Positions 15,618-41,645 of a stretch of 64,000 nt of DNA are shown here, one piece after another. The DNA is taken from positions 231,671 through 295,670 of the forward strand of contig CAZDWN010000002.1 of NCBI GenBank assembly GCA_964509365.1. Direction: 5' to 3'. This DNA is from an uncultured Pseudomonadales bacterium (GTDB taxonomy: Bacteria > Patescibacteriota > Microgenomatia > UBA1400 > UBA12028). Below the pieces are notes generated by a model. That model saw nothing but the letters and a program-made list of their open reading frames with translations. It made no database searches and had not been told where the DNA came from. Numbering within the stretch: the stretch's first letter is position 1; every line of letters begins with the position of its first letter. The position numbers and the translations under genes were made by a program.

Positions 15618-15667
15618 AACAAGTCCTAGAAGTAAAATGTGATTATACTCCAAAGATTTGACGAAGC

Positions 15668-18763: not shown

Positions 18764-19135
18764 CTAGGATTGCAAGACACCTTTGTAATAGTTTTTCAGA
18801 AGTGCCGTTGCACGCGGTGAATGATCACGTCCTCGCCCACCCATGCTATGAAAGGCGCTGGTCGCATCGTGGCCGCACTGATTTGCAATTGCCGAGACAC
18901 CACCAGGATGCACAGTGAGATATGCACTTAGATCGTAGACATTTCCGTCCAGGCTGACCCAACAATCGGATGTCGACGTATGAGAGGCGATATCACTTGC
19001 AGTAAACCCAGCAAGTTTCCCGCTCGTAGTTTGGCCAGCCGTGGCCAAAGGACTAGTTGACGCTTGGGTGGTTGCATTGGTGCATCCAGATAACATCAAT
19101 GAGGCGATGAGAAGGATTGAAAGTGATTTCTTCAT
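18764..19135 (-). CDS. cytochrome b5-like heme-binding domain lipoprotein (about 124 aa)
   Basis: Lipobox LMLSGC. The stretch VYDLSAYLTVHPGG...GHDATSAF matches the cytochrome b5 heme-ligand motifs (HPGG plus a second His). Confidence 0.6.
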   Translation of the reverse strand: MKKSLSILLIASLMLSGCTNATTQASTSPLATAGQTTSGKLAGFTASDIASHTSTSDCWVSLDGNVYDLSAYLTVHPGGVSAIANQCGHDATSAFHSMGGRGRDHSPRATALLKNYYKGVLQS

Positions 19136-19163
19136 TCCCAGATCATAGCTGTGCAGTTTGAGA

Positions 19164-20090
19164 TCAAGCTGAGCGGAGTCGTTTGATCCGGTCTTCGATC
19201 GGAGGATGCGTGCTGAAGAGTCCTGCAAACCAGCCGACGCTTCCTCCTGAGAAATTCGATTTCGGAGTATCTGTATGAAATGGGCTATGGATATAAAGAT
19301 GGGCCGTGGCATTGTTTGCCGCTTCCAATGGCTCTTGATCTTTCTCGAGCTTCTCAAGCGCTCTTGCCAAGCTTTCAGGATATTTCGTGAGTCCGGCACC
19401 AGATGCATCCGCGAGATATTCTCGATTGCGAGACACCGCCAGTTGGATGAGTTGCGCAATGAGAGGAGAGAGCAAAGCAAACAACATCCCGAGCACGAAA
19501 AAGATCATTCCGATTTGACCGCTTTCATTGTCTCGACTTCGACGACGACCTCCAAACGAGGACATTCGCAAGAACCAGTTGGCGAGTAATGCAATGAGTC
19601 CGACGAGGATCGTGACGATGGACATGAGGCGCGTATCGTAATTTCGGACATGTGAGAGTTCATGAGCGATGACACCTTCGAGCTCAGTTCGATCGAGGCG
19701 AGACAAGATTCCTGTTGTCGCGCAGACGACCGCATGTTGAGGATCTCTGCCCGTTGCAAATGCATTCATGGCGGAGTCTTCAATCACGTACAGTTTGGGC
19801 ATTGGCATGCCGGCCGCGAGGGTAAGATTTTCCGTCACCGTATACAGTATGAAATCCGTTTTCCGATTAGCCGGCCTGGCACCGGACATAGTCAAGATGA
19901 CTTTGTCGGAGAAATAGTAGCTTCCCAAGCTCATGATCCCTGAAAAGATAAGAGCCAACGGGACAAAACTTGGATCGAGTCCAAATCCTTGCACCATGAA
20001 ATACACTGCCGTCACAATAAATGCGACGAACAAGATCATGATGAGCCATGATTTTCGCTTATTGGCATCGATTTGCTGGTAAAAGTTCAT
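19164..20090 (-). CDS. htpX: HtpX-like M48 zinc metalloprotease
   Basis: HELSH motif (HExxH) and N-terminal transmembrane helices. Confidence 0.8.
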   Translation of the reverse strand: MNFYQQIDANKRKSWLIMILFVAFIVTAVYFMVQGFGLDPSFVPLALIFSGIMSLGSYYFSDKVILTMSGARPANRKTDFILYTVTENLTLAAGMPMPKLYVIEDSAMNAFATGRDPQHAVVCATTGILSRLDRTELEGVIAHELSHVRNYDTRLMSIVTILVGLIALLANWFLRMSSFGGRRRSRDNESGQIGMIFFVLGMLFALLSPLIAQLIQLAVSRNREYLADASGAGLTKYPESLARALEKLEKDQEPLEAANNATAHLYIHSPFHTDTPKSNFSGGSVGWFAGLFSTHPPIEDRIKRLRSA

Positions 20091-22939: not shown

Positions 22940-23010
22940 GCGGGATTAGTATAGTGGTAATATATATCCTTCCCAAGGATAAGCGAGGGGTTCGATTCCC
23001 CTATCCCGCT
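22940..23010 (+). tRNA. tRNA-Gly (anticodon CCC)
   Basis: Acceptor GCGGGAU/AUCCCGC. Anticodon stem UAUCC/GGAUA with loop UUCCCAA. T-arm AGGGG-UUCGAUU-CCCCU. Confidence 0.85.
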
Positions 23011-23026
23011 CCCGTAGCATGAAAGT

Positions 23027-23097
23027 GCCTCCTTAGTTCAGTGGCAGAACAGCGGTATCGTAAACCGCGGACGTCAGTTCGATTCTGACAAGAGGCT
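23027..23097 (+). tRNA. tRNA-Thr (anticodon CGU)
   Basis: Anticodon stem GCGGU/ACCGC with loop AUCGUAA. T-arm GUCAG-UUCGAUU-CUGAC. Confidence 0.8.
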
Positions 23098-23153
23098 CTA
23101 TGTACTCAAGACTTGCACATCACGAAGAAAACCACTTGGTCCGACAAATTCTC

Positions 23154-23804
23154 ATGTTGTTTGGAGCAAGCATCGGCTTGATCGTGTTGTTCTTGCTCGT
23201 CATTCTTCCTGCGTTCATCAAGTTCTTGGCCTTTCGAAATTTCTCATCGAAGATTACGTATTCGCAAGACAGCGTCATCACCTCCAAACCGTTTTTGACC
23301 CAGCCGTTTGAAGCGACCAACAGTGCAACTCTCAAATTAACAGGGAGCGCACAGGCAGGTCAAAAGATTGTCTTACTACAAAATGGGTCGCCAGGGCCAG
23401 AGACAAAAGCCGCTGACGATGGCTCCTTTGCATTCACAGGTGTGACACTCGAATCAGGACAGAATACATTTACGACCGTCGCACAAAATGACAACGGCGA
23501 TCGCAGTAACCCATCCAATGCGGTGGTGATCTCCTTCGTGAAAGATGCTCCCAAACTCACGGTCGACACTCCAACCAATGACAGTACGATTTCTCAGCGA
23601 AAACAAAACCCGATCACGGTCAAAGGAAAAGCTGACGTCGGTGACAAAGTGTATATTGCTGACCGACTGATCTTCGTCTCAGCGGATGGGAGTTTTACTA
23701 GTCAAGTCCAACTCAATGAAGGCGATAACACGATTACCGTCAAAGCCGTCAACGCTGCTGCAGTCGAGACTTCTCTCGATATCCTTGTGCACTTCTCGCC
23801 ATAA
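23154..23804 (+). CDS. membrane-anchored extracellular protein with Ig-like/Big-type beta domains (ORF could begin at 23100)
   Basis: N-terminal TM helix. Repeated beta-rich modules (GKADVGDKVYIADRLIFVSADGSFTSQVQLNEGDNTITVKAVN). Confidence 0.5.
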   Translation: MLFGASIGLIVLFLLVILPAFIKFLAFRNFSSKITYSQDSVITSKPFLTQPFEATNSATLKLTGSAQAGQKIVLLQNGSPGPETKAADDGSFAFTGVTLESGQNTFTTVAQNDNGDRSNPSNAVVISFVKDAPKLTVDTPTNDSTISQRKQNPITVKGKADVGDKVYIADRLIFVSADGSFTSQVQLNEGDNTITVKAVNAAAVETSLDILVHFSP

Positions 23805-24936
23805 TGACGGCGAGTATGATCAGTACAAATGGATAAAAAAACGTATTCGTAAACAATGCGTGCACCCCAACTGCCAGGAGCACCGCCTGGACCTCAACAC
23901 TTCCCTGACTTACTTTCAAAAGCTGCCATACAATGCTCAACGATATTCCCACGCCAATAACTCCTAGAGAAGTAAAGAGAAACACATACGAGTTCTCAGC
24001 TGCGCTCGAATGATTGGGGACGACCGCATTGTAAAGGAGCGTGGTAGGGTTCTGTTCCTTTTTCCAATACCACCCCTTCCCGATGACTCCATCACTTAGT
24101 GAAAACTGTGAAAAGGATCCCGTAACGCTATCAATACGTGAAACTACGCTCGCTGTACGCTCCAGTTTTACTCCTTCTCCTCCTGGTCGTGGTAAGAGCA
24201 CCATTCCGAGTAGAAAGAGCGGAAGTAAGAAGAGCACGATTTTGTTCTTGAGCTTCCATGCAAGAAGAAGTGTCATGACGAGATACGCCAGATATGAAGC
24301 TCGAGAGTACGTTAGTAAAAGTGCCACAGTCATTGTAAGCAGAAGTGTGGAGTTGACCCAGTTGCGTCTGCGAATCCACTCCACGAGTACTACCGCAATG
24401 CCAATCACCAGCATGATCCCCGTAAATCCTGGGTCAAAGAGTGTGGATATCAATCGAAAGTAGTGATCATCCCATCCCAGTAACTGCAGACCTCTGGTAT
24501 CTGGGATCGCCACATATTGGAAAAAGCCAAGTATGGCTATGAGACTTACCACAGAGACCAGCCATGTCTGGATCTCACGAGCTGTAAGTGTCTTTTCCCG
24601 AATCAGTAGATAGATGACGAGTCCAAGCGCAATAATGTTGTCTAGTCGAAGCAGATATAAACTGACGACAAGCAGTTGATGAAAGTCCGGCCAAAAATGC
24701 ATCAAACTAGTCGCGAAGATCCATGCGTTGAGTGCGACAAAGAGTTGAGCGAGTCGAGATGAGGAAAGTTGTCTCCAATTCACCTTACGATACAGCAAGT
24801 ACGTCACCCACATCATGGGTATCAGGATATCTTGAAAATAAATGGCAGTCGCACCTAACAGCTCAAATCGTCCAAATTGTCCGAGGACGAGACATCCTCC
24901 GAGTGTGAGAAACAAGATTCGAAAGTAGGATCTCAT
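23749..24936 (-). CDS. O-antigen ligase/Wzy_C family polytopic membrane protein (possible polymerase, ligase or O-oligosaccharyltransferase)
   Basis: Ten or more TM helices, with an LLTYSRASYLAYLV motif resembling the Wzy_C/RfaL signature. Confidence 0.65.
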   Translation of the reverse strand: MRSYFRILFLTLGGCLVLGQFGRFELLGATAIYFQDILIPMMWVTYLLYRKVNWRQLSSSRLAQLFVALNAWIFATSLMHFWPDFHQLLVVSLYLLRLDNIIALGLVIYLLIREKTLTAREIQTWLVSVVSLIAILGFFQYVAIPDTRGLQLLGWDDHYFRLISTLFDPGFTGIMLVIGIAVVLVEWIRRRNWVNSTLLLTMTVALLLTYSRASYLAYLVMTLLLAWKLKNKIVLFLLPLFLLGMVLLPRPGGEGVKLERTASVVSRIDSVTGSFSQFSLSDGVIGKGWYWKKEQNPTTLLYNAVVPNHSSAAENSYVFLFTSLGVIGVGISLSIVWQLLKVSQGSVEVQAVLLAVGVHALFTNTFFYPFVLIILAVIMARSAQGYREKSRLQQR

Positions 24937-25700
24937 GAGCGTGTCCTCAGTCTTTCAAGCAGTTTGATGCGAACACACAAGGAATGGAAACTCATCATCC
25001 AGGCCATGATGAGGCCAGGATATCCATCAAGCATTCCAAACCTGACAATATAGTTTTGCACAAACTTCGCTAGTGGGAATACAAAGAGCTGGAAGTACGC
25101 CGTACTTCGTCTGGCTTTACTACTTCTCTCTATGACCTCGAGCTGGGTGTAGCGATTAATCTTCTCAAAGAAGCTCTCAAGTGTCGGGTGAGGGAAATGA
25201 AGGATCTCTCCGACTAATGTGTCAGTGTGCCCGCTTATGTTCCATGTCTCATGCACTGATCGCACCCATTTGCCAGTATCTTTCCTTGCGAATCGCAACA
25301 GTTTCGTATGCGATGTTTCCCCGTAATACAGTCGCTTGCCCATAAAAAAGTCACGCCGATTGATGAAAAACCCATTCACCAGTTTGGACTCCCAGTGACC
25401 ATCAAGCAGCTCCTGACTCAACTCTTTCGTGACGACCTCATCGACGTCGACAAAAAGGATCCATTCTGTCCTGACATACTCCAGTAAGAAATTTCGCTTG
25501 TGAGAAAAGTTGATATCGGCAGGAAGTTTGATTACATCCGCGTGGTAGTGTTTTGCGATGACAATGGAGTCATCTGTTGAGTTGTCATCGCCGACAATGA
25601 TATTTTCACAAAAGTCGAGAGACTCAAGACAATGAGTGAGCGTCAATGCTCCGTTCTTACACAAGACGATCGCAGTGATATTAGTAGGCTTTGGCATAAA
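24933..25700 (-). CDS. glycosyltransferase family 2
   Basis: ITAIVLCKNGALTL...IIVGDDNSTDDS, the GT2 DxD region. Confidence 0.75.
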   Translation of the reverse strand, partial: FMPKPTNITAIVLCKNGALTLTHCLESLDFCENIIVGDDNSTDDSIVIAKHYHADVIKLPADINFSHKRNFLLEYVRTEWILFVDVDEVVTKELSQELLDGHWESKLVNGFFINRRDFFMGKRLYYGETSHTKLLRFARKDTGKWVRSVHETWNISGHTDTLVGEILHFPHPTLESFFEKINRYTQLEVIERSSKARRSTAYFQLFVFPLAKFVQNYIVRFGMLDGYPGLIMAWMMSFHSLCVRIKLLERLRTRS

Positions 25701-27168
25701 CTTTTTGACTATCAAGTTCTCGGACCCAGTACGCCCCAAGATCGATCACGTTTCCTTGGTCGATCCATCGTCGCTTGGCTTCCTCTGGTCGATCGATACG
25801 AAATCGAGCACAATCGGGACCTTGAGTCCGGGAGTCGATGGCGATGAGGTATTCCAAATGATTATAGAGTGTCGGAAAGGTCGCGTCTCGTTCAAGTGAT
25901 TCGAGTATGATGCAGCGATTGCCGGCTAATGTAAAAAGTGAGTCGACAATGTGCTGTTGCGTCCCTATGCTTGGCCCAAATCGTTTGTCACCCCAATTTG
26001 ATTCGTTTGTCTGCAGAAGAAAGAATGTATTCATTTCAAGATGCTTCGCTGAGAGTGCCAGTGAAGTGAAGAGTACCAATGTAAGAAACACTCCGACGTT
26101 TCGATTGATTTTGCGAAGCCCACTAGCGATCATCATCGTCACACTCGGTGCCAATAGCGGTATATATGCTTCCGATGGGACCCTGTGGATCACGAGTCCG
26201 ACTGCCAAGATACAGCTACTCGCACCGACGATTCGCGACAGTAGATTACTTTTTCTCCACGTCCACACACAGATGCCAGCGCAGAGGACTATGATGCTCA
26301 GCCACAGCCACTGATCCATCGCAATTCCATTTTGAGTGAAGAGCGATACAAACAGCTTGATCAAATCTTGGATTTTTGCTCCAGATCCGCCATCGGTCAA
26401 ACTATTTTTTGTAAATGGCAGCAGCGCAGTTACGATCTTATACCCCACCCAAACCGCAAATCCTCCAAGCTGAGCAAATTGATGAGTAAGGTCAAACACG
26501 ATTTGAGGAAGTAAACCGATAGCGAGTCCAAGCCCAATCGGAAGTGTCCTGACCAGTTGGGAGCGACTCGGCCACGTTTGCTTCATTTTCACGAGAGGGA
26601 TCAACAGAATGAGTGGAAAAGCCGCAAGCTCAAACTGAAACACCAGTGCAAAGGCGAGTCCTGCCCCAAAAGCCGCCCACTTCTCACCTCGTGCAAATCT
26701 GACAATTTGCCACAGGAAGATGCAGACAAACAATGGAATCGGGACGATGTGATATGGCATCCGACTGTGGAGAATCAACATGGGAAGCAGAGAAAACAGC
26801 AGTGCTGCGAGTGTAGCTGTTCTGACGGAATCATAGGTAGCGACCAGGAGATAGAGTGCGACAATTGCCGCCAGTCCAAACGCGCTTGCCAGTAGTCCCA
26901 TCGCGAGGATTGATCCGTGGCTCAGCCAATAGGTGATCGCCAAAAAGTAAATAAACAATGGACCTTGCTTGAATCTCGGGATACTTGAAGGGATGCCCAG
27001 TAACGGGACGTGACCAAGTTCGACCATCTCTTTCGCGACCAGCGCATCTCGTCCTTGGTCTCCGACAAAGATCATTTGCGACGAAATTGAGTGGACGCGA
27101 AGAACCGTCGCAAGTGCGAGGATGAGGAAGAATATCCAATGAGTCCGAATCGCAAACCAAATTCTCAT
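25681..27168 (-). CDS. GT39/GT83-like (PMT/ArnT-type) membrane glycosyltransferase
   Basis: Polytopic protein with an N-terminal loop motif FVGDQGRD, followed by a C-terminal soluble domain. Confidence 0.6.
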   Translation of the reverse strand: MRIWFAIRTHWIFFLILALATVLRVHSISSQMIFVGDQGRDALVAKEMVELGHVPLLGIPSSIPRFKQGPLFIYFLAITYWLSHGSILAMGLLASAFGLAAIVALYLLVATYDSVRTATLAALLFSLLPMLILHSRMPYHIVPIPLFVCIFLWQIVRFARGEKWAAFGAGLAFALVFQFELAAFPLILLIPLVKMKQTWPSRSQLVRTLPIGLGLAIGLLPQIVFDLTHQFAQLGGFAVWVGYKIVTALLPFTKNSLTDGGSGAKIQDLIKLFVSLFTQNGIAMDQWLWLSIIVLCAGICVWTWRKSNLLSRIVGASSCILAVGLVIHRVPSEAYIPLLAPSVTMMIASGLRKINRNVGVFLTLVLFTSLALSAKHLEMNTFFLLQTNESNWGDKRFGPSIGTQQHIVDSLFTLAGNRCIILESLERDATFPTLYNHLEYLIAIDSRTQGPDCARFRIDRPEEAKRRWIDQGNVIDLGAYWVRELDSQKVYAKAY

Positions 27169-28439
27169 ACTGATTGCTCTGCAGCTACTTGCACGAGAGC
27201 AGGATTTGGGACGGATTTACTTTTGGCTACTTTCATTGCCTGCCAGATGAAAAGCGGTTGGATCAGAAGTCTCGAGGCGACGACTGCATAGGCGGCACCA
27301 TGGAGACCAAACTGATGAGTGAACCACCACATGAGGATGAGCATCGCAGTGAGACCAATCGCATACAGCGCGACGAGCGATCGGATCCAGTTACGGGCAA
27401 GAAACAATGGATTGATAAGCGTGTCCATCCCAGTGATAAAGGCACAGATCGATAGTGGCAAAAACAACTCAAGCGACGGTCTCCACTTTTCTTTGAGTAA
27501 ATAGATCAGTGCACCCTGCACAATCGTGGTATTGAGAGCGATCGTGGGGATGAGCATCAGTACGGCTGCAGGGAGAATGAGCTTGATGACGGCCCGCTTC
27601 ATTCGATCAGGTTCGTCGACCAGTCTTCCATAGATCGGCAACAGGACTTGTGAAAATGCCGTCCCGACCTCTGCGATCAGACTGCGAGTGAGATTAAAGG
27701 CAGTTTGATAAAAGCCTAGAGCGGTTGCCCCGAGGACTCTGCCAACTATGATGTTGTCAAAATTTTGCTCTGCATACGTGATGATCCCAACTGCATTGAT
27801 CCACTTCCCTGGCGTGATGATCGCTTCATACACTTTTTTATCAAAATGAAGTTTTGGTCGTTGTTTGATGAACACAAACGAGTAGACCACTTCGGCAAAA
27901 GCCGCCAAGATCATCGCATAGATCAGACTGTCTGCATTGTGAAAGACGCGTACAAAAAGTATTGCGGAGACTGCATCGACAATGGTCAATCCAATACGCA
28001 AATATGCTTCTTTATTAAACTCAAGATTTTTGACATACATCGCCTCGGCTGGATTGATGAAACCTTTGATTACTGGGATCACAGCAGCCAGTAGCATGAG
28101 GGGAAACAACCCCTGATCATGGAAAAACACTGGAGCTAAAAATGCGAACGCAAGGAGCACAGCTCCTATCAAGAAGCCTCTCACCATGGAGACAATATAT
28201 GCAGTATCGAGGTAGTAGCTTAAGGGCTTGCTATCTTTGATCAGGACGACATTGATCCCCGTCTCTGTGAGCATCTCCAGGAGTCCGAGAGCGATGGCTG
28301 CCAGTCCAAACAATCCGACTTCACGAGGTGAGAGGTACCGATATGCAAAGAGGACTTTGGCAAAGACAATTGCTTTTGCCCCATACCGGAATGCACCGAT
28401 CCAGCCTAATCCCTTCAAGAAATCTTTTGTATACCCCAT
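27165..28439 (-). CDS. Wzx-like polysaccharide flippase (MOP superfamily)
   Basis: About 12 TM helices with a polysaccharide biosynthesis protein-like N-terminus. 4-nt overlap with the downstream GT39 gene. Confidence 0.65.
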   Translation of the reverse strand: MGYTKDFLKGLGWIGAFRYGAKAIVFAKVLFAYRYLSPREVGLFGLAAIALGLLEMLTETGINVVLIKDSKPLSYYLDTAYIVSMVRGFLIGAVLLAFAFLAPVFFHDQGLFPLMLLAAVIPVIKGFINPAEAMYVKNLEFNKEAYLRIGLTIVDAVSAILFVRVFHNADSLIYAMILAAFAEVVYSFVFIKQRPKLHFDKKVYEAIITPGKWINAVGIITYAEQNFDNIIVGRVLGATALGFYQTAFNLTRSLIAEVGTAFSQVLLPIYGRLVDEPDRMKRAVIKLILPAAVLMLIPTIALNTTIVQGALIYLLKEKWRPSLELFLPLSICAFITGMDTLINPLFLARNWIRSLVALYAIGLTAMLILMWWFTHQFGLHGAAYAVVASRLLIQPLFIWQAMKVAKSKSVPNPALVQVAAEQSV

Positions 28440-28482
28440 AGCATTGATTGTACGACAAAATAGGCTAAACTGATAAAACAAT

Positions 28483-28875
28483 ATGAAGGAACTCGACGAA
28501 AGTGCTCGGGTACGCGAGACACCACAGCACGGATGGAGATTTGGCGGTTTATCACCTGATGATCGAGCCAAACATCTTCAAGGACTACGCGAGCTGTACC
28601 GCGCTGAGTTACACAATCGCACAAATGCACTTTCTCCAGTCTCACTGCTTCTCGATACCATTTTCGAGATTTTACTCAGTACACTACGAGGTGAAGAGCA
28701 TACAAAGACATCTTCTCGGCTTTTAAGCGAGTGTGGCTTGGGAGATATTGTAATGGAGTTTCGACAGCAACTTCGTACAGAACAAATCCCAAAAAAGTTG
28801 ACCGACGAACATATGGTGCTGTTACGTGAACTTATGGAAAGTAAAGTATTTTTTATTCTTGAGGCTTTTAAGTAA
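28483..28875 (+). CDS. hypothetical protein (130 aa), the only plus-strand gene inside the glycosylation island
   Basis: Intact ORF that overlaps the 3' end of the next minus-strand gene by 8 nt. No motif I can recognise. Confidence 0.4.
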   Translation: MKELDESARVRETPQHGWRFGGLSPDDRAKHLQGLRELYRAELHNRTNALSPVSLLLDTIFEILLSTLRGEEHTKTSSRLLSECGLGDIVMEFRQQLRTEQIPKKLTDEHMVLLRELMESKVFFILEAFK

Positions 28876-29782
28876 AGCGTGCGCTTACACTCCCTAGCAC
28901 TGTCCCCCACATGACTGCGAAATCACTAACCACTTGGAGGAGAGGAAGCCAACCAAGCGCTTGCGGATCATTGACGTACCGGTAGTTTTTCTGGATAGCA
29001 TAGGCAAAGTACACAAGTAGAGCACCGATACCGAATGCCCAGTACCAGACTCCTACTGCTATTAGCAGCAGATATCGAAGATATATGGTGAGCACTTTCG
29101 GTCGAAAAGTCCGAGAATACGCATCTCCAAATGCATGCTCAAAGATCATGCGGGCAAATGCCCAGAGGTTTTTCCTCGGTCTCCACGTGACGATGGCCGC
29201 GGGCACGACGGTGATGGGTATGTGCTTCGCTTGAAGTCGCCTGGCGAACTCATAGTCTTCGGCATAGCGATAGTGTTCATTAAACGTTCCTACCTTCTCC
29301 CAAGCGGTCTTGGTGATCCCCATGCTTCGTGTTGCAGGTAAAAATGACTCGGTGTTGATCTTGTCAGGCATGACCAACACATATGGGATCTCGCACTTCT
29401 CAAATACGGATGAGTACTCCCCTTCGTAATACCCCGCGACGACATCAGATTTTTCAAAGCCTTTGATCATGTGCGCCACCCAATCAGGATGGAGGACGCA
29501 ACCCGCGTCGGTGATGAGGATATGCTCGTACGTCGCGGCCTCGATCGCTCGATTCCTTCCGACAGCTCGATTGGCACTTTGATGGAGCGTTATGATTTTG
29601 ACATCTGTACCCGATTTCTTGATCTCACTCACATCCCATGAGGCCGTGGGGAATGCCGAGTTCTCGCCAGCAACGGTGATGATGAGCTCGTCCACTTTTC
29701 GGGTTTGATTAGCAATTGAATCCAAAAGCCTGCTAATTGTTTTCGTTTCGTTTTTAGTCGTTATGATCAAGCTAATTCTCAT
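28868..29782 (-). CDS. glycosyltransferase family 2 with C-terminal TM helices
   Basis: ISLIITTKNE...ITDAGCVLHPDW, GT2 motifs. Confidence 0.7.
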   Translation of the reverse strand: MRISLIITTKNETKTISRLLDSIANQTRKVDELIITVAGENSAFPTASWDVSEIKKSGTDVKIITLHQSANRAVGRNRAIEAATYEHILITDAGCVLHPDWVAHMIKGFEKSDVVAGYYEGEYSSVFEKCEIPYVLVMPDKINTESFLPATRSMGITKTAWEKVGTFNEHYRYAEDYEFARRLQAKHIPITVVPAAIVTWRPRKNLWAFARMIFEHAFGDAYSRTFRPKVLTIYLRYLLLIAVGVWYWAFGIGALLVYFAYAIQKNYRYVNDPQALGWLPLLQVVSDFAVMWGTVLGSVSARFT

Positions 29783-29783
29783 A

Positions 29784-30797
29784 CTAATTCCATTTCCACA
29801 ATTTCTTGTACTTGAGATACACTCGATTCCACGTTTGCTGACGTGCCCATTGGTATGCATCATCAATTTGTTTTGTGTAGTCTTCGCTTTTGATCAAAGT
29901 CAGCGCTTGTTTGAGCTCAAGCTCCGAACGGACGATGACCATGTCTTGGGAGCGAGGATGTGCCATCAGGTAATCTACTTTTAGTTCGTCAGCAGCGTAT
30001 GCGACGACGAGAGTCCTGCATTGCATTGCCTCCACAATAGCCAGATAGGATGAGACACACGCGATGTCGTACTGTGGGAAAACGGCACAGCTATCGTCGA
30101 TAGTGCCAAGTTTTGACCCTGGTCCGAACATGTCCAACTGGCAATTGTCCAGTGACCTGATTACGTTCTCATAGATCCTTGCTCCCGTGTCTTGACTGAT
30201 TCTCCCGACGAAGACTCCTCTGATTTTTTTGGATTTTGGTAATTGGATTTTGAAATTTGGTAGACATTCTCCTCCTCCATACGTCACTTCGTCAGGTTTG
30301 GTGCCGTACCATTTCTCGATCCAGTATCCGACTGCCATGCTACCACTCGTCCAACGTTGGATCATCTGTCTAGTCCGCTTCGCTTTCGGATCAATGTAAA
30401 GCTCACGGCCTTCGCCCGCCGAAGTCTTGACGGAGGAGGGCTCAAAGCCATGGTACGTGATATAGACTTTTTTCCACGGAAACAGGATTCGGATTGGCCA
30501 ATACCAGAAGAAGACGTCGTGGATCTGGATGACGTCAGCTTGGATAAACGTCAATATGTGGGCCAGCATCCAGCTCCAGATCTCGATCCGTGCTTGGATT
30601 TTGCCTCCATTCGCAGTCACTCGGTGGACATTCACTCCATCGATTACTTCCTCGCTCTTAAGCTGCGAGTCGTGTTTGAGCGTGAATACGTCAACATGAT
30701 GACCGTCCTTGATCGCTTCCCTCGATATGCCAGACACATGTTTTTCTACTCCTCCGATGTGAGGGGCATACAGCCTGCATATCATTACAATCTTCAT
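29784..30797 (-). CDS. glycosyltransferase family 4 (GT-B fold)
   Basis: MKIVMICRLYAPHIGGVEKHV, the GT4 N-terminal signature. Confidence 0.7.
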   Translation of the reverse strand: MKIVMICRLYAPHIGGVEKHVSGISREAIKDGHHVDVFTLKHDSQLKSEEVIDGVNVHRVTANGGKIQARIEIWSWMLAHILTFIQADVIQIHDVFFWYWPIRILFPWKKVYITYHGFEPSSVKTSAGEGRELYIDPKAKRTRQMIQRWTSGSMAVGYWIEKWYGTKPDEVTYGGGECLPNFKIQLPKSKKIRGVFVGRISQDTGARIYENVIRSLDNCQLDMFGPGSKLGTIDDSCAVFPQYDIACVSSYLAIVEAMQCRTLVVAYAADELKVDYLMAHPRSQDMVIVRSELELKQALTLIKSEDYTKQIDDAYQWARQQTWNRVYLKYKKLWKWN

Positions 30798-30798
30798 A

Positions 30799-31602
30799 TT
30801 AGGTTTTCCGACAGAGTATTAGAATGTTATTGGGTTGCCATTTTGTTTGAAGAATGTACTTCGCAATAAATTTCTTCAAAAAGTATAACTTTGAAAACGC
30901 GTAGAAGACTTCAAAGCGCAAAATTTTAAACCCTGCAATTGTTAACTCAGCAAAAATCAATTCAGGTAGGTAGCATCGTAAATGTTCATTCGGATTATTT
31001 GGAAACATATTCTCAAGGCCTTCGTTCATTGGTACAGAAACTAGAAGATATCCGTCTTTTTTTAGCATATTGCTTAGATTCCCAAGTGCTTGGAATGTGT
31101 GTATTGGAGAAATATGTTCAAGAACCTCAAAAATACTAACAATTTCGTACGCATTTTTGTCATTTGAATGTAATCTTGCCAGAATATCTCGTTTGTCAAA
31201 TCTGAATCTAGGGAATTTCTTTGTCAATTTATCTAATGATTTTTGAGCCAAATCTACGCCCGTATGAGAGAAGTTCACATTTAATTTAGAAATCAAACTC
31301 TCAAAATTTCCATCGCCACAGCCGACATTGAGAGTAGATGCTTCTTCCGTTACAATGTCCGAAAACCACTTTGCAGCAGTATTATTTCTATCAATTTCCA
31401 TGAAGTTCTTTAGCTTTTTCTCGTGTGTGGACGAGAATTTATTGTCCCAAAAATCACCCGTATTTTTATTTTCTAGAAGTATCTTAGTCGAGTAAGTCAC
31501 TTTTAGTTCATCCAGCTTTCTATCACGAGCGAGAATGTTGCGCTTAGATTCCATTTCAAAATATCTTCGTGCATTATTTGTTATTGACATTGTTTTAATC
31601 AT
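30799..31602 (-). CDS. class I SAM-dependent methyltransferase (AT-rich gene)
   Basis: Motif [13 protein letters not shown]. The gene has a distinctly low GC content. Confidence 0.65.
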
Positions 31603-31624
31603 AGATTTAGGATCAAGCTTACTG

Positions 31625-33538
31625 ATGAGCTATATTGCGCATAGACTAAGCGTTGCAATATTATTCTTTTCACTTTTAATTTACACAACAACAAAAATTG
31701 CTTTTGCTTCAACTATTATCTTTCAAGATGATTTTAGTGCTGGCCTGACTAAATGGGAACAGACAGAATCAGATGGGACAGTTTGGTCAGTCGCTAATGG
31801 ACGAGCTTATATCTCAACGTTCGGAAGTTCGAAAATTCATCAGCTATTACCGAAAATTTCAGAATGGAACGACCATTACACCAATCTTGATATCAATTTT
31901 GATCTTCTATCCACAAGTGGCTCAGATAAGAATTTCATTCTGAGATACAGATTTCCGGATGATTTTTACGAATTACATTTCAATGATAGTGTAGTTGCGC
32001 TTGACAGAACGCTTCCTTCGAACTCATACACGGCGCCCTTCACATTTGGCAACAATCTTGAGAGACATGTGGAGGTAAAGTACCGTATTGAGTCAATTGA
32101 AGTTTTTGTTGATGGCACACTTATAGCAACAAATTTAGATGCTTCCAATCCATACAACACAGGTCGAATCGGGTTGAGAGTGGCAAATTACAATAATGTT
32201 TACTTTGACAATATTGTGGTGACGGGGGAGGATCCGGTCCCCACCCCTACTCCTAGCCCAACTCCTACCGCAGTGCCAACTACGACGCCGACAGCGACAC
32301 CAGCTCCCACCACGACACCGACTCCTACTCCAATCGTGACTGCCAGCCCGTCGCCAACACTAAGTCCGACGCCGACTCCATTGCCAACTCCGTACGTCTT
32401 TCCTGCCTTTTACCAAACAGATCCACTATGGAAGTCCGAGACTTATGACAATGCGTCGACTTGGAATCTGCTCGATCCTTCCTTCGGTCGCTGGGGGTGC
32501 GCTGTGACGTCTGCCGCGATGATCCTCAAATACTACGGCATCGCTACTTTGCCAAATGGACTTGGTACGACACCAGGGAATTTGAATGTGTGGCTGAAAT
32601 CGTATCCTGGTGGATACGTGAATGAAGGCTTGCTCAACTGGCAAGCGGTCTCAAAAGTGACTGCGCTCATGCATATTACGAATCCGTTTTGGACCAAACT
32701 CGAATATAGTTGGGGTAATGGCTCCCTCTCGGCACTTTCGACTGAACTCACCAGTGGCCGCCCCACTATCTTGCAAGTCCTCCCAGGGCATTTTGTAACC
32801 GCGTATCAGCTGGGCAGCGCAAACAAAATCGATATCGTCGACCCATACTTTGCAAAGACGACACTAGCGCAATACGGAAGTACTTTTGTCTCCATGCGAA
32901 AGTTTCAACCATCATTTACAGACTTAAGTCACTTGACGTTGTATCTGAGCGAAGATAACCAGATATCTCTGGAGCGACAAAAAGGCAACAGATTTGAACT
33001 CACGTCCGCCAATAGCTTCACGGAACAACTCTGGGGGCAGCCAGGCAATGTCCCATCGGGTCCGATCAGTCGAGTGCTCGATCTTGCCAGGCCAGAGGAC
33101 GGAAAATATCGCTACAAGTTTTCTAAAAAAACAGCAGGCATGACTCGCTTCACATATTTTTCGACGAATAGAGACGGTGAGCAAAGCAGCCAAAGTGGCA
33201 AATTACTCGTTGGCAAAGATCCAAGATACGCCACACTGACCTATGTGAAGTCAGCTACCAGCTCTGCAGAGCTATCATTCCTTGTCGACTTTGACACGCT
33301 GGACCAAGATTATGAGATCGCCAAAGTGAGCGGGGGAGTCAGACAAAAATATGACTGCAAAGATATTACGGTACTTCTCCATTTGGCAGATGCGTTCTAT
33401 CCACGCAATCGTCTAGCTTCACGGGCGGGCTTCGAGCTCTTCGTACGAGCGTATGAAGCGCAACGTTCACGGTTCGAAACTGAAGTGTACGCTCTTATCC
33501 AGCAAGATATCCTTCGAGCCAGATCTCAGCTATTCTAA
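31625..33538 (+). CDS. secreted multidomain protein: LamG/concanavalin-like domain, Pro/Thr linker, peptidase C39-like (papain-fold) domain, and a C-terminal domain (ORF could begin at 31535)
   Basis: Signal peptide [31 protein letters not shown]-rich linker ([21 protein letters not shown]...). The stretch [18 protein letters not shown] matches the catalytic-Cys region of C39 peptidases. Confidence 0.6.
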
Positions 33539-33642: not shown

Positions 33643-34389
33643 ATGCCCGAATATGGAAAAAAGACACCCGACGAAATCAAAAAAGAAATTCTCAAGCATT
33701 CACTTGAAAAGAATCCTAATATTCCGAATGTGATTGCGTCTGCCATCTTCAATGGAAGCGATCAAAAAATATACGAGTTGAACGATACAGAACTCGCTCA
33801 GCTACTGCGCACATCCCCAAAACAGAAAATAAATGAATTCTATGATGAACTTCTGCTACATCCAGAACGCTATAATGACGAGTATATCAACCTCGTTTTG
33901 GCACCGTATGGGTATTCCTCAGAAGAATTACATATTTTTTTACAAATCATTCGAAAATCAATTTCCATTCAGACTTCAGCAAGGATTCAAACGATAGATT
34001 ATGCTCACAAAAGTGCAGAAGAACTCATGCACATCGCCACTTCACCGCGCGAGCCTGCCATAGTTGAATTTACATTTTTTCATAAGGAGTTTTTACATAC
34101 AATTGGCGAACTCGCTTATATTCTGGAGCTTTGCGATGACCCAAGGACCTTTAATCGCTTAGGAATACTCCCAACAGGGATGATCAACAAACTGCTTCTC
34201 ATCGAGAGTAATGACTGGCTTCATGATCGAATCATCGCTATCCAAAAGAATATGATCACACGAGCAGAGAATGACAATATACGCAAAATTCCGAGAACAA
34301 TTACTGATCGTGAAGTCCAGTCATACCGGACGTATTTAGTAAAGGAAGCCGAAAGACTCAGCGTACTTCAGGCTCCAAAATCACCATAA
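33643..34389 (+). CDS. hypothetical protein (248 aa), AT-rich
   Basis: ORF only. Confidence 0.4.
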   Translation: MPEYGKKTPDEIKKEILKHSLEKNPNIPNVIASAIFNGSDQKIYELNDTELAQLLRTSPKQKINEFYDELLLHPERYNDEYINLVLAPYGYSSEELHIFLQIIRKSISIQTSARIQTIDYAHKSAEELMHIATSPREPAIVEFTFFHKEFLHTIGELAYILELCDDPRTFNRLGILPTGMINKLLLIESNDWLHDRIIAIQKNMITRAENDNIRKIPRTITDREVQSYRTYLVKEAERLSVLQAPKSP

Positions 34390-35934: not shown

Positions 35935-36957
35935 TTATCGGGATGCCAAAGTGAGATTTGGATCGCGGTCAAAGTCCAGAGAATTGGGTTCATGGTGAGC
36001 AGCGGCAATACCGATCATGGCAGCATTGTCGGTGCACAACCGAGAAGTGTAAGGGAAATAGACAGGTAGATCATGACTTTTCCCAAAGGCCCGTAGTGCC
36101 TTCCGCACTTCAAGATTTTTGATCACTCCACCTCCCACGATGATCGAGGTGAGCTCTCTATTTGCGATCGCATACTCGAGTTTCTCAGTAAGATGTTTGA
36201 TCGCGGCGGTTTGAAATGCCAGTGCGATATCAGCGATGTTTTGCCGTGTGAGGTTGGGATACGATGCGACGATCCGTGACGCTGCCGTCTTGAGTCCCGA
36301 AAAACTCATATCACTACTATGGATTTGGCGCATCGGGACCGGAAACTTCACAGCTCCCGGAGTCCCTTCCCTGGCAATCTTCTCAAGGAAAGGTCCAGCC
36401 GGATATCCGAGCCCTAGCATTCTTCCGATCTTGTCATAGGCTTCCCCCATCGCATCATCCAATGTCTTCCCCACGATCTCATACTCTCCAACCGCTTTTG
36501 CATAGACAAATTGCGTATTTCCTCCTGAAAGTATCACACCCATGATCGGAAATTGAGAATTGAAAATTGAAAATTGAGAATTCTTTCGTTTTGGCTGCGC
36601 CAAAAACGAAAGCAAGTGTCCTTCTAGATGATTGACCGCGATGATTGGCTTTTTATACTTCAGTGCCAGTTCTTTTGCTTTGGCGATGCCCACCTCCAGA
36701 CAAATCGAAAGACCTGGTCCTCGGGTGACCGCGATGCGATCGATGTCGTCCCAAGTTTTGTGAGCCCGTTTGAGCGCGAGCGCTATCACCGCATCGATAT
36801 GATCTTCATGAGATTTTCGAGCCAGTCGAGGCACGATGCCTCCATATTCCAGATGGAGTGAGAGGTCGGTTGTCAGGACATTCGAGAGGATGGTCGTGTC
36901 TTGCGTGACTGCGACGGCAGTGTCATCAAAGGAGGTGTCGATAGCGAGCATGGTCAT
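35935..36957 (-). CDS. tsaD: tRNA N6-adenosine threonylcarbamoyltransferase
   Basis: MLAIDTSFDDTAVAV...HLEGH...VILSGG, as in TsaD. The gene contains a heptanucleotide-repeat-encoded insertion KNSQFSIFNSQF. Confidence 0.85.
   Translation of the reverse strand: MTMLAIDTSFDDTAVAVTQDTTILSNVLTTDLSLHLEYGGIVPRLARKSHEDHIDAVIALALKRAHKTWDDIDRIAVTRGPGLSICLEVGIAKAKELALKYKKPIIAVNHLEGHLLSFLAQPKRKNSQFSIFNSQFPIMGVILSGGNTQFVYAKAVGEYEIVGKTLDDAMGEAYDKIGRMLGLGYPAGPFLEKIAREGTPGAVKFPVPMRQIHSSDMSFSGLKTAASRIVASYPNLTRQNIADIALAFQTAAIKHLTEKLEYAIANRELTSIIVGGGVIKNLEVRKALRAFGKSHDLPVYFPYTSRLCTDNAAMIGIAAAHHEPNSLDFDRDPNLTLASR
36549..36583. repeat. 5 x 7-nt tandem array (GAAATTG AGAATTG AAAATTG AAAATTG AGAATTC) inside tsaD
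   Basis: Direct reading of the sequence. It encodes KNSQFSIFNSQF in-frame. Confidence 0.75.
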
Positions 36958-38030
36958 ACAGTGTAGGAAATGAGGCGATCATTCTCGGCCTCACCGAGTT
37001 TGATATGCACACGGATGATTTTTGCTTGGGCCTCATATTTTTTGAAGTCATCATGGAATCGATCCGCCCACTCGAGCGCAATGACTGCATTTGTAGTGAT
37101 TGCATCATCAAGTCCGATATCAGTGAGTTCATGAAAGTGCTGAAGTTTCCAGCAGTCGATATGGACAAATGTCCCCGGCATGCTTTCATTTTCAAATTCA
37201 AATTCATTCGCGATCGCATACGTCGGCGAGCTCACCGACTCCGTGATACCCAGGCCTTTAGCAATTCCTTGGATGGCGTGCGTCTTCCCGGCCCCCATCT
37301 CACCAGAAAACAAAAAGAAGACTGGAGTGTAGGTGTAGTACGAGCGAAATCGCTTCACAAATTGGGTAAACCAGTTCACTGTCTCTTCTTCACTGTGGCT
37401 GACATACGTCTCCGATGAGACAAAGTTTGCCGCTCCTTGCCGCAGTACTTGGATATCGTCCACCGTTGTGTCGATGACCGTGCTCGGTTCATTGTGTGGC
37501 AGTTCGCCGATATCGATCACCAAATCAATGAGCGCCTGCTGCGACTGCGAAGTATTGTCGAGGATGTCTTGGATCGTGTAGGGTCGCTTTTTGTTTGAAG
37601 CATTGGCGCCAGTCGCGCTGATACCGTGTCCAAACGCAGCGATCAGAGCAAGTGCCAGATCGTGTTTTGGGATACGGATACCTATTTTCCCATCTGTAGA
37701 CGCGATGCCAGGGGCGACCACGCCGTTTCCAGTGGAGATCACTGTGACTGGCCCTGGCAAGAATCGCTCATACACACCCTCAGCAGTATGATTGAGCGAT
37801 ACATATCGCTGCGCCATTGTCTTGTCAGTGACGGCGACAGAGATTGGCTTGCCGTCTCGTTTGCCTTTGTAGTCGAGGAGTTTTTGGACCGCTTCAGAGT
37901 TTTCCACATCGACCGCGACTCCATACGTCGTCTCCGTCGGATAGATGACGATTCCTCCAGACCGCAAGACACGTACCGCTTCACTGAGAATGTCTGCTTC
38001 CTTGGTGGTTTTCGATTGGATGATCGTCAC
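36954..38030 (-). CDS. fusion protein: TsaC/Sua5/YrdC threonylcarbamoyl-AMP synthase (N-terminal) plus TsaE/YjeE P-loop ATPase (C-terminal)
   Basis: N-terminus IVIYPTETTYGVAVD, the YrdC motif. C-terminus FSGEMGAGKT...SPTYAIANEF...HIDCWKL, the TsaE Walker A and conserved motifs. Confidence 0.75.
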   Translation of the reverse strand: MTIIQSKTTKEADILSEAVRVLRSGGIVIYPTETTYGVAVDVENSEAVQKLLDYKGKRDGKPISVAVTDKTMAQRYVSLNHTAEGVYERFLPGPVTVISTGNGVVAPGIASTDGKIGIRIPKHDLALALIAAFGHGISATGANASNKKRPYTIQDILDNTSQSQQALIDLVIDIGELPHNEPSTVIDTTVDDIQVLRQGAANFVSSETYVSHSEEETVNWFTQFVKRFRSYYTYTPVFFLFSGEMGAGKTHAIQGIAKGLGITESVSSPTYAIANEFEFENESMPGTFVHIDCWKLQHFHELTDIGLDDAITTNAVIALEWADRFHDDFKKYEAQAKIIRVHIKLGEAENDRLISYTV

Positions 38031-40934: not shown

Positions 40935-41645
40935 GTGTTGTACGGGGGTACAATAGAACCTATGCACACTGCCGATATCCAAGGGCTTCATTTCACCTAT
41001 CCAGACCAACTCGAGTTTGAGACGTTGGTGGAAGAGGCGTTCAAAAAACATAGTTACTATGTGGATCTCGATACGCAGACGCCGACGATCATCGATGCAG
41101 GCGCAAATATTGGCACCAGTGCGTTGTACTTTCACAAGCTCTATCCAAAAGCCAAGATCATCAGTATCGAGCCCAACCCCCGAAACTTAGAGTACTTAAA
41201 GCAAAATCTCAATGACAATGACATCACCAATGTGACGATCGTACCGAAGGCACTGGTGGGAAAAGATGGTGAGCCGACAGTAACCTTGTATGTGCATCCT
41301 CGATGGGGAGTATTTTCAAGTCTCAAAGCCAAAGGCTGGTCACAGGATCAAGAAATGACTCCAGTCGAAGTCGAAACAGTCAAACTTTCGCAACTCATTA
41401 CTGGACCAGTGGATATTCTCAAAGTCGATATCGAAGGAGCGGAAGAAGAAGTTTTAAGAGAAGCCAAAGATAGTCTTCGCTTTGTCTCGCATCTCTTGCT
41501 TGAGTATCATGAGACGCGAAAAGGCCAAGTCGAGCACATGCAGCGCTTCCTGGCAGACCAGTTCAAAGAGATTACGGTGACGAAAGATGAGCGAAAAGAA
41601 AAGAATCGTGAGCACCAGCTCTACCTAATCGAAGCGAACAAATAA
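40935..41645 (+). CDS. FkbM family methyltransferase (start possibly at 40962)
   Basis: IIDAGANIGTSALYF motif. Confidence 0.6.
   Translation: MLYGGTIEPMHTADIQGLHFTYPDQLEFETLVEEAFKKHSYYVDLDTQTPTIIDAGANIGTSALYFHKLYPKAKIISIEPNPRNLEYLKQNLNDNDITNVTIVPKALVGKDGEPTVTLYVHPRWGVFSSLKAKGWSQDQEMTPVEVETVKLSQLITGPVDILKVDIEGAEEEVLREAKDSLRFVSHLLLEYHETRKGQVEHMQRFLADQFKEITVTKDERKEKNREHQLYLIEANK

Follow-up and report, generated by a model that had tools for sequence, protein, structure and literature searches.

A conserved Patescibacteria gene cluster with Wzx and Wzy_C families: a probable envelope-glycan locus with a putative exchangeable methyltransferase-lectin cassette

The DNA analysed here, which we call the window, is a stretch of 64,000 nucleotides (nt) from contig CAZDWN010000002.1 of assembly GCA_964509365.1 (positions 231,671 to 295,670), and its relatives belong to a Microgenomates/Woesebacteria-type lineage of the candidate phyla radiation (CPR, or Patescibacteria). 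It carries a run of minus-strand genes for a methyltransferase, three cytoplasmic glycosyltransferases (GT4, GT2a and GT2b), a Wzx-type flippase, a PMT_2-family membrane protein and a Wzy_C-family membrane protein, bordered at one end by a plus-strand gene for a membrane-anchored protein with immunoglobulin-like (Ig-like) domains and at the other by one for a secreted protein with a Pro/Thr linker (Table 1). A preliminary description had taken this run for a surface-glycan assembly cluster, and the presence of a flippase, a putative GT-C enzyme, three cytoplasmic glycosyltransferases, a methyltransferase and a Wzy_C protein upholds that view. It had also regarded the cluster as an island, perhaps partly of foreign origin, for a general protein O-glycosylation system with the neighbouring Pro/Thr-linker protein as its target, and in these respects our results point elsewhere. 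We consider it very probable that the locus builds a lipid-linked envelope glycan. It is an ancient and conserved part of the chromosome of one CPR/Patescibacteria group, not an acquired island.

Table 1. Features of the cluster and its extracytoplasmic neighbours. The last column gives the relatives in which a counterpart was found, over those with enough flanking sequence. aa, amino acids; GC3, GC content at third codon positions; ORF, open reading frame; SAM, S-adenosylmethionine; TM, transmembrane.
Feature	Position in window	Strand	Size and matches	Relatives
SAM-dependent methyltransferase, AT-rich	30799-31602	-	267 aa; Methyltransf_23, 47 bits	6/53 (detectable with the window's protein)
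GT4 (GT-B) glycosyltransferase; apparent variable module	29784-30797	-	337 aa; Glyco_transf_4, 56.6 bits	20/53
GT2b glycosyltransferase; apparent variable module	ORF 28868-29866, likely ATG 29782	-	304 aa; Glycos_transf_2, 57 bits	24/53
Plus-strand orphan ORF	28483-28875	+	130 aa; no family match; GC3 0.37	
Wzx-type MOP flippase	ORF 27165-28571, likely ATG 28439	-	424 aa; Polysacc_synt_3, 156 bits	55/63
PMT_2-family membrane protein	25681-27168	-	495 aa; PMT_2, 27.7 bits (cut-off 26.1)	32/63
GT2a glycosyltransferase	longest ORF 24933-25739 (TTG 25739), ATG 25697	-	254 aa; Glycos_transf_2, 46.8 bits	59/71 (directly upstream of Wzy_C)
Wzy_C-family membrane protein	23749-24936	-	395 aa, ~12 TM helices; Wzy_C, 34.1 bits (cut-off 31.7)	
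Ig-like membrane-anchored protein ("Big")	23100-23804	+	234 aa; Glucodextran_B, Big_6, Big_13	72/74
Secreted lectin/C39 protein	31625-33538	+	637 aa; Peptidase_C39_2, Pro/Thr linker	15/53
Putative AT-rich exchangeable cassette	30799-32224	.	methyltransferase gene, 22-nt divergent spacer and lectin-domain coding part	

The gene list of the preliminary description stands, including a plus-strand orphan ORF amid the minus-strand genes; Pfam models returned every family as proposed (Methyltransf_23, Glyco_transf_4, two Glycos_transf_2, Polysacc_synt_3, PMT_2 and Wzy_C), except that one gene had been labelled GT39. With the most plausible ATG starts, 1 nt separates the methyltransferase gene from GT4 and GT4 from GT2b, and there are overlaps of 4 nt between Wzx and PMT_2, 17 nt between PMT_2 and GT2a, and 4 nt between GT2a and Wzy_C. 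Between GT2b and Wzx lies a gap of 428 nt that contains the orphan ORF. Because this gap splits the gene run, what had been seen as a single overlapping operon is more likely two translationally coupled sub-operons, methyltransferase-GT4-GT2b and Wzx-PMT_2-GT2a-Wzy_C, with the tight coupling preserved inside each. Scans for promoters and terminators gave no excess over shuffled controls.

None of the cluster genes reached an equivalog threshold in the NCBIfam scan. The flippase, which is the most conserved of them (84% identity to its counterpart in locus L008, the nearest relative), matched NCBIfam models for MOP flippases (99.7 bits) and TuaB (69 bits), both far under the equivalog cut-offs. 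Its high conservation and its mur and RodA neighbours raised the idea of a MurJ-type lipid II flippase, which was rejected because no MurJ model matched and the WzxC and TuaB types were the best NCBIfam matches. The nearest solved relatives of GT2a are weak ones, SunS (7e-9) and GmaR (1.5e-8). Hydrophobic segments at the C terminus of GT2b were read by eye from the sequence, and this protein has weaker Pfam and NCBIfam matches to Glyco_transf_21, HpnI and CruG, which we take to be lipid-directed GT2 families.

The PMT_2 protein carries a GDQGRD motif in its first loop and, judging from its Pfam family, is taken to have a GT-C fold; no meaningful match to the Protein Data Bank (PDB) was found by sequence. 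The GT39 label did not survive, since PF13231 is the sole Pfam match even at E<=10, with none to PMT (PF02366), PMT_4TMC or MIR, and the gene occurs in only about half of the relatives. We treat it as a putative accessory outer-face glycosyltransferase rather than as a demonstrated protein O-mannosyltransferase. PMT_2 fusions with an additional GT2 domain occur in at least nine relatives. This third type of GT2 domain is N-terminal in proteins of ~700-750 aa, for example in loci L006 (7105-9261), L013 (7088-9238), L021 (3308-5467) and L027 (3485-5734), among others, and such fusions would combine a cytoplasmic GT-A domain with a membrane domain. We considered whether the fused or an adjacent enzyme might be a polyprenyl-phosphate-sugar synthase that feeds PMT_2, and rejected this candidate, as the fused domain has no meaningful similarity to GT2a or GT2b; on reading its sequence we judge it to be rhamnosyltransferase-like.

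The window proteins were compared by BLASTP with 80 species-representative loci drawn from GTDB genomes, and also with the contigs of five homologues. The block Wzx-(PMT_2)-GT2-Wzy_C is syntenic over these species-level relatives, down to ~30% Wzy_C identity, and recurs between LysM, LemA, M48 peptidase and GatCAB genes on one side and signal peptidase, ParB, L27/L21, RodA and isoleucyl-tRNA synthetase (IleRS) genes on the other. Given that the same gene order and the same housekeeping flanks are seen in 80 genomes, the block is best understood as vertically inherited core genome. Wzy_C homologues that bear names come from Woesebacteria, Pacebacteria, Cerribacteria, Microgenomates and "Patescibacteria group" metagenome-assembled genomes. 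The rest of the window is housekeeping as well, with genes for DnaE, CTP synthase, GatCAB, a Sua5-TsaE fusion, TsaD, Dus, ParB, two signal peptidases, RodA and IleRS, and with a division and cell wall (dcw) cluster that comprises FtsZ, FtsA, MurG, FtsW, MurD-like, MraY, MurA and MurB genes. By this comparison, the constant core of the locus appears to be Wzx, GT2a, Wzy_C and the Ig-like protein, and its variable module the methyltransferase, GT4, GT2b, PMT_2 and the secreted lectin/C39 protein. A different methyltransferase family stands at cluster positions in 18 loci.

The Wzy_C protein is the putative catalytic core of the locus on the extracytoplasmic side. The Pfam match spans residues 198-329, and most homologues among the matches listed carry a precomputed PF04932 match. 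In an alignment of 48 homologues with 30-55% identity (alignment A1), invariant residues include R97, D146, W155, D156, H158, R161, D168, TYSR(209-212), R260, G286, G288, G325 and G328; placed by hand from the helix order of the model and the positive-inside rule, they are predicted to lie on the outer face. The AlphaFold2 model, with a predicted local distance difference test (pLDDT) score of 92.3, has a largest outer loop of ~65 residues. Foldseek matched this model to the O-antigen ligase WaaL (7tpg, TM score 0.55, E 9e-4) and to FtsW (8bh1, TM score 0.43), with nothing else at E<0.1. By sequence, a search of the PDB with the family profile retrieved nothing at E<=10, and an hhalign comparison with Escherichia coli WaaL was not significant (probability 0.2%); the only segment aligned in this non-significant local alignment pairs TYSR212, whose Arg is invariant in A1, with TQTR215 of WaaL.

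Two motifs, RX(11-24)GXG (GN1) and HNX9GX(2-4)G (GN2), are reported to be common to ligases and beta-linking Wzy polymerases (PMC12502699). Both can be recognised in the window protein, GN1 as R267-x18-G286-x-G288 with both Gly residues invariant, and GN2 with exact spacing as [D/E]314-N315-x9-G325-xx-G328, in which N315 is kept in 45 of the 48 sequences and both Gly residues in all. A hand alignment by spacing equates H338-N-x9-G349-xx-G352 of E. coli WaaL with E314-N315-x9-G325-xx-G328 here, so that the position of the motif His is acidic in nearly the whole family (27 Asp, 20 Glu and one Ser among 48 members, never His). The corresponding His is the proposed catalytic base of WaaL and of PglS, and the H324A variant of PglS has served as an inactive control (PMC12800693). 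In the proven polymerase Wzy23F, the GN2 deletion was described as "E311 to G325" (PMC12502699), and from this residue numbering a Glu would occupy the His position there too. The 395-aa protein has Wzy_C as its sole match, and at E<=10 there is no Pfam domain specific to PglL. The domains in question are presumably PglL_A and Wzy_C_2, which we take to be the families of the extra periplasmic domain of PglL-type enzymes. An earlier suggestion that the protein may be PglL-like hence finds little to sustain it. Although sequence alone cannot assign Wzy_C proteins to a function, the evidence leans towards a polymerase and away from a canonical ligase or O-oligosaccharyltransferase (O-OTase).

The strictest neighbour of the locus is the Ig-like protein, not the Pro/Thr-linker protein: the former is nearly constant among relatives (72 of 74) and the latter is not (15 of 53). 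The Ig-like protein has a conserved cytoplasmic N terminus resembling SRLxxxEQKK, one transmembrane helix and two Ig-like domains. Its gene is convergent with and adjacent to that of Wzy_C in 67 of 74 relatives, where the 3' ends mostly overlap by 4-16 nt; in the window they overlap by 56 nt. The 70 homologues are all 208-271 aa long, and the few that have names are all from CPR. Their alignment contains no conserved Ser/Thr-rich segment and no conserved C-terminal Ser. From the adjacency, we propose that the Ig-like protein is a partner of the Wzy_C enzyme. A fusion of the two was looked for among the homologues, and none was found. In the window, the Ig-like gene starts 2 nt after tRNA-Thr (23027-23098).

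The protein at the other end of the cluster is secreted and has a long Pro/Thr linker, as first described. Its gene, which the source assembly also starts at 31625 (P0121), encodes in order a signal-like helix, a ConA-like lectin domain (aa 28-205, DUF1080/CBM66-like), a Pro/Thr run of ~60 residues with a disordered linker at aa 206-257, a C39-like cysteine peptidase domain, a beta-sandwich and a C-terminal helical bundle. The AlphaFold2 model has a pLDDT of 87.7, falling to <50 in the linker, and its peptidase part is alpha/beta. Peptidase_C39_2 (PF13529) matches at 27.8 bits against a cut-off of 24, and C292, H389 and D406 are invariant in 25 sequences (alignment A2); a bacteriocin-processing C39 enzyme is ruled out because there is no ABC-transporter domain. 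The lectin domain resembles CBM66 (4b1m, TMt 0.75) in Foldseek and has profile matches to 4jqt (1e-11) and to a CBM66 levanase (6e-5), and the Pfam family 3keto-disac_hyd matches it below the cut-off (20.1 versus 26.8 bits). Foldseek searches with the full-length model were dominated by this domain and gave no fold neighbours for the peptidase and C-terminal domains.

The family to which this C39 protein belongs is small and largely confined to CPR. All 15 of its occurrences are in loci with the GT4/GT2b module, and these loci number 25 in all. The Pro/Thr linker is ~60 residues long in the window and in L003, is reduced to 10 residues in L007 and is absent from L006, where the glycan genes are intact. 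Owing to its invariant Cys-His-Asp residues and its lectin-fold domain, the protein looks like a glycan-binding enzyme, and we propose that it is a glycan-docking enzyme rather than a glycosylation substrate. The Pro/Thr run is a variable hinge; it might still be glycosylated opportunistically, but it cannot account for the existence of the cluster. With an inconstant gene, a linker of 0 to ~60 residues and an enzyme-like triad beside a lectin fold, the protein is unsupported as the target once supposed to be encoded next door, and none of the tests made here ties the locus specifically to its glycosylation.

A GC profile bears out the reported AT-richness of the methyltransferase gene (GC 0.34, GC3 0.33) and of the 5' end of the C39 gene (0.375 and 0.335 over the first 600 nt); values in the other cluster genes are 0.455-0.495 and 0.49-0.57. 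L008 is the closest relative of the window, with 56-84% identity, in Dus, GT4, GT2b, Wzx, Wzy_C, the Ig-like protein and the C-terminal two-thirds of the C39 protein, but the methyltransferase and the lectin domain share just 29% and 33%, respectively, with those of L008. For these two parts L008 groups with L003 (methyltransferase 57%, lectin domain 65%) and the window with L009 and L007 (52% and 48% for the methyltransferase, 43% and 41% for the lectin domain). The L008 methyltransferase is of another type, and at least two non-orthologous types fill the slot among relatives. When identity to L008 is followed along the C39 protein, it stays at 20-44% as far as residue 200, climbs to 68-92% over the five 40-residue windows that come next and drops to 38-62% over the final four, and the GC content of the gene moves from 0.31-0.45 to 0.53-0.64 at nt 32225 and to 0.40-0.56 further on. 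The right-hand breakpoint thus falls at the Pro/Thr linker, near nt 32225. The same slot is AT-rich in L008 (0.29-0.34 versus ~0.43), as are the orthologous methyltransferases of L007, L009, L023 and L082.

The methyltransferase and the lectin domain therefore differ from their flanks in relatedness as well as in composition, and they appear to form one exchangeable 1.4-kb cassette whose history is discordant with that of its surroundings. The clean form of this pattern comes from five genomes; across 12 loci, lectin-domain type and first-gene type are correlated (Spearman 0.39) in a way that is confounded by phylogeny and is merely consistent with the five-genome discordance. The suggestion that AT-richness reflects a different history or horizontal acquisition accordingly holds for the cassette, with its 29-33% identity to L008, and for two orphan ORFs, and fails for the remainder of the cluster. 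Joint exchange would fit a lectin that recognises the modified glycan, although physical linkage by itself would be another explanation. In every genome examined, 14-39 nt separate the divergent methyltransferase and C39 genes (22 nt in the window, 31603-31624; also L008 4355-4368 and L007 2326-2355), a space so short that the promoter of each must be located within the AT-rich 5' coding region of the other. Sites that resemble the promoter consensus occur at +31584..31613 and -31759..31731.

The orphan ORF in the 428-nt gap is called as a gene in the source assembly (P0230), and we regard it as a candidate coding ORF that resembles an insertion specific to its lineage. It had no match among Pfam, NCBIfam or PHROG families, no homologue was found in 87 related loci, and a search of 1.84 billion representative proteins returned only the ORF itself and two weak repeat-type matches. 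The gap that holds it has no counterpart in relatives and is ~80 nt long in L008. Residues 8-41 (window 28510-28580; around GWRFGGLSPDD) weakly match a motif repeated 7-8 times in P0231 and P0232 (822 and 1084 aa). A second such ORF, 33643-34389 (+), encodes 248 aa between the C39 gene and Dus, has a GC3 of 0.38, and likewise resembles a lineage-specific insertion, with no Pfam, NCBIfam or PHROG match and no homologue in the related loci. Its place in L008 is taken by an unrelated membrane or secreted protein of 229 aa.

From the gene families, the fold, the motifs, the synteny and the cassette discordance, we infer a pathway, including its lipid carrier, the order of its steps, the choice between polymerase and ligase, the final acceptor and the parts played by the Ig-like and C39 proteins. 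A phosphoglycosyl transferase encoded elsewhere would prime a polyprenyl-diphosphate carrier, on which a short oligosaccharide would be extended by GT2a on the cytoplasmic side, helped in this genome, it seems, by GT4 and GT2b, and the unit may be methylated by the methyltransferase. The Wzx flippase would then carry the unit outward, and on the outer face Wzy_C would join or transfer units, polymerisation being the more likely role. The PMT_2 enzyme may add an optional decoration on the outer face. The Ig-like membrane protein would be the probable partner of Wzy_C, and the lectin-C39 protein a probable glycan-docking enzyme whose lectin domain is swapped with the methyltransferase as one AT-rich cassette. 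As to the full statement, that this is a Microgenomates Wzx/Wzy-type envelope-glycan pathway in which Wzy_C acts as the polymerase, we are evenly poised between belief and doubt.

In favour of such a pathway, the locus sits in the conserved core chromosome beside cell-wall and division genes, the flippase is encoded in the same sub-operon as Wzy_C, and both the flippase gene and an adjacent GT2a gene are kept in most relatives (55/63 and 59/71). Several observations weigh on the other side. The 64-kb window contains no initiating phosphoglycosyl transferase (Bac_transf/WecA-type) except MraY (58762-59805, in the dcw cluster), no Wzz-type polysaccharide co-polymerase (PCP) and no LytR-CpsA-Psr (LCP) ligase, and none of the three is among the recurrent genes of the 80 loci, so that the pathway is incomplete in cis. 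The Wzy_C and PMT_2 scores barely exceed the Pfam cut-offs, and the Wzy_C family profile finds no solved structure by sequence. Moreover, polymerase is told from ligase by a single motif position and a single published example of a polymerase. The roles proposed for the Ig-like protein and the C39 protein rely on adjacency and co-variation, both of which physical linkage alone could yield.

Alternatively, Wzy_C could be a ligase resembling TacL or WaaL, which would move a finished chain or unit linked to undecaprenyl diphosphate (Und-PP) to a membrane glycolipid without polymerising it. The anchor might be like that of a lipoteichoic acid or lipoglycan, with GT4 and the membrane-bound GT2b making the glycolipid acceptor. 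We think this unlikely. The best solved fold match is WaaL, the Arg equivalent to R215 of WaaL is invariant, GT2b has its weak similarity to Glyco_transf_21, HpnI and CruG, and a Wzz-type chain-length regulator was found neither in the window nor in the 80 loci. In size and domain the window protein also matches TacL (397 aa) of Streptococcus pneumoniae, a monoderm in which this Wzy_C protein attaches teichoic-acid chains to a glycolipid (PMC5727136). Against this, the His that aligns with H338 of WaaL is absent from the family, and GT4 and GT2b are present in under half of the relatives while Wzy_C is constant, so that an acceptor pathway encoded at the locus is not conserved. A second polymerase-type gene was seen in none of the 80 loci, and the product of a ligase acting by itself would therefore be single units, unless a polymerase is encoded elsewhere.

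Protein O-glycosylation in any form, with Wzy_C as an O-OTase of the PglL, PglS or TfpO kind that moves the flipped oligosaccharide to Ser/Thr residues of envelope proteins, seems to us rather improbable. Dedicated O-OTases are often encoded beside their acceptors, and Pro/Thr linkers are O-glycosylated in some bacteria. The minimal conserved set of flippase, one glycosyltransferase and Wzy_C resembles the logic of the Neisseria pgl system, an extracytoplasmic Ig-like protein adjoins Wzy_C in nearly all relatives, the window protein carries its long Pro/Thr linker, and the nearest solved relatives of GT2a, SunS and GmaR, are protein glycosyltransferases, although these matches are weak and the enzymes cytoplasmic. 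However, the proposed catalytic His (PMC12800693) is Asp or Glu in 47 of 48 sequences, and the 395-aa protein shows neither a PglL-specific Pfam domain nor an extra periplasmic domain. The version in which the Pro/Thr linker of 31625-33538 is the target accounts for well under half of the small likelihood that we allow, as relatives with intact clusters have a linker of 10 residues or none and the inconstant protein has an enzyme-like triad. In another version the target would be the Ig-like protein, or S-layer or pilin proteins encoded elsewhere; the Ig-like protein lacks a conserved Ser/Thr-rich segment or C-terminal Ser, and its gene is convergent and so not co-transcribed with Wzy_C. None of the tests made here favours protein O-glycosylation.

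A more adventurous proposal, which we offer as a long shot, is that the His-less Wzy_C and the single-pass Ig-like protein form an obligate pair in a lineage-specific envelope-glycan machine, the Ig-like protein acting as a co-polymerase or ruler, or else as a protein anchor that carries the glycan in organisms thought unable to make their own lipids. Methylation type and lectin domain would then switch together in a serotype-like manner, with a peptidase guided by the cell's own glycan. Finally, horizontal acquisition of the whole eight-gene block as a genomic island is extremely improbable in spite of the tRNA genes (Gly and Thr) that abut it at 22940-23098 and of four low-GC3 segments (the methyltransferase, the lectin domain and ORFs 28483-28875 and 33643-34389), as gene order and housekeeping flanks are shared by 80 species-level genomes, seven cluster genes have window-typical GC and GC3 with identities that parallel that of the flanking Dus gene, no integrase or transposase turned up when the window ORFs were scanned with Pfam, and an exchanged or inserted look is confined to the 1.4-kb cassette and the two orphan ORFs.

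Other features of the window and of related contigs can be noted briefly. A second sugar-type methyltransferase of the FkbM family (40935-41645, +; 71 bits) lies next to ParB, 9 kb from the cluster, and is weakly similar to the O-antigen methyltransferase RfbT of Vibrio cholerae. ORF 18764-19480 (-) has a cytochrome b5-like heme/steroid-binding domain (70 bits), and since ~300 nt at its upstream end are shared with the ORF of the M48 peptidase, its start is probably internal. Directly upstream of TsaD, a single ORF (36954-38030, -) joins Sua5/YrdC and TsaE, two proteins of the N6-threonylcarbamoyladenosine (t6A) pathway. No Pfam match was found for ORFs 13971-15737 (-, 588 aa), 57429-58709 (-, 426 aa) and 53242-53964 (-, 240 aa), the last two of which are inside the dcw cluster, where genes of Mur ligase or FtsQ type would be expected. 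On the contig of a close relative (L001, 1-3577), a 1675-aa alpha-2-macroglobulin-like protein has matches to Hint/intein-type domains.

The components of the locus belong to known families, and among known systems it comes closest to the Wzx/Wzy pathways by which monoderm bacteria make teichuronic acid and capsule. The tuaA-H operon of Bacillus subtilis and the pneumococcal capsule loci also combine a MOP/Wzx flippase, GT2 and GT4 enzymes and a Wzy_C-domain enzyme within a single operon, the weak NCBIfam matches of the cluster genes include TuaB and TuaG, and GN1 and GN2 are shared with beta-type Wzy polymerases, including an acidic first GN2 residue as implied for Wzy23F. Unlike those pathways, the present locus has no TuaA/CpsE-type initiator, Wzz/CpsC-type co-polymerase or LCP ligase that we could find in cis, it has a convergent Ig-like membrane protein, and none of its genes has an NCBIfam equivalog. 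WaaL of E. coli K-12 (7TPG) is alike in fold, in length, in the identical N-x9-G-xx-G spacing and in the Arg paired in the non-significant local alignment, but differs in the H338 column, and sequence similarity is not significant. No lipid A, core or other lipopolysaccharide (LPS) genes are among the scanned ORFs of the 64-kb window, and bacteria of the host lineage are considered to have no LPS outer membrane.

The O-OTases PglL, PglS and TfpO likewise have a Wzy_C domain and act on flipped Und-PP-glycans, yet they are enzymes of ~460-600 aa, whereas the window protein is shorter, has neither the motif His nor a PglL-specific domain, and has no candidate neighbour with a conserved acceptor feature. 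TacL, like the window protein a Wzy_C protein of just under 400 aa, acts after a Wzx-type flippase (PMC5727136). It works beside separate polymerase and LCP enzymes, genes for which were not seen in the window or the 80 loci. A further parallel may exist with wall hydrolases whose binding modules are matched to the wall-glycopolymer decoration of the host, such as choline-binding proteins and the binding domains of phage endolysins. The combination of a C39-like Cys-His-Asp domain, a flexible linker and a carbohydrate-binding-type module that co-varies with a methyltransferase is reminiscent of these, but here the peptidase substrate and the lectin ligand are putative, and the co-variation may be mere linkage.

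What sets the locus apart is the family-wide replacement of the motif His by an acidic residue, the convergent Ig-like partner, the methyltransferase-lectin cassette and the lack of an initiator, co-polymerase or LCP gene found in cis. Our literature searches yielded no description of such a locus in CPR, the cell envelope of which is almost uncharacterised. The findings correct the earlier picture of an island with its glycosylation target next door: rather than a dedicated protein O-glycosylation system, the locus is an entry point to CPR envelope biology. As a block conserved among cell-wall and division genes over a class-level lineage, it is a concrete candidate for making the principal glycopolymer of the envelope in these ultra-small episymbionts, and it offers candidate partners for further study in Wzy_C with the Ig-like protein and in the lectin-peptidase. 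The variable cassette, in turn, could underlie strain-level diversity of the cell surface.

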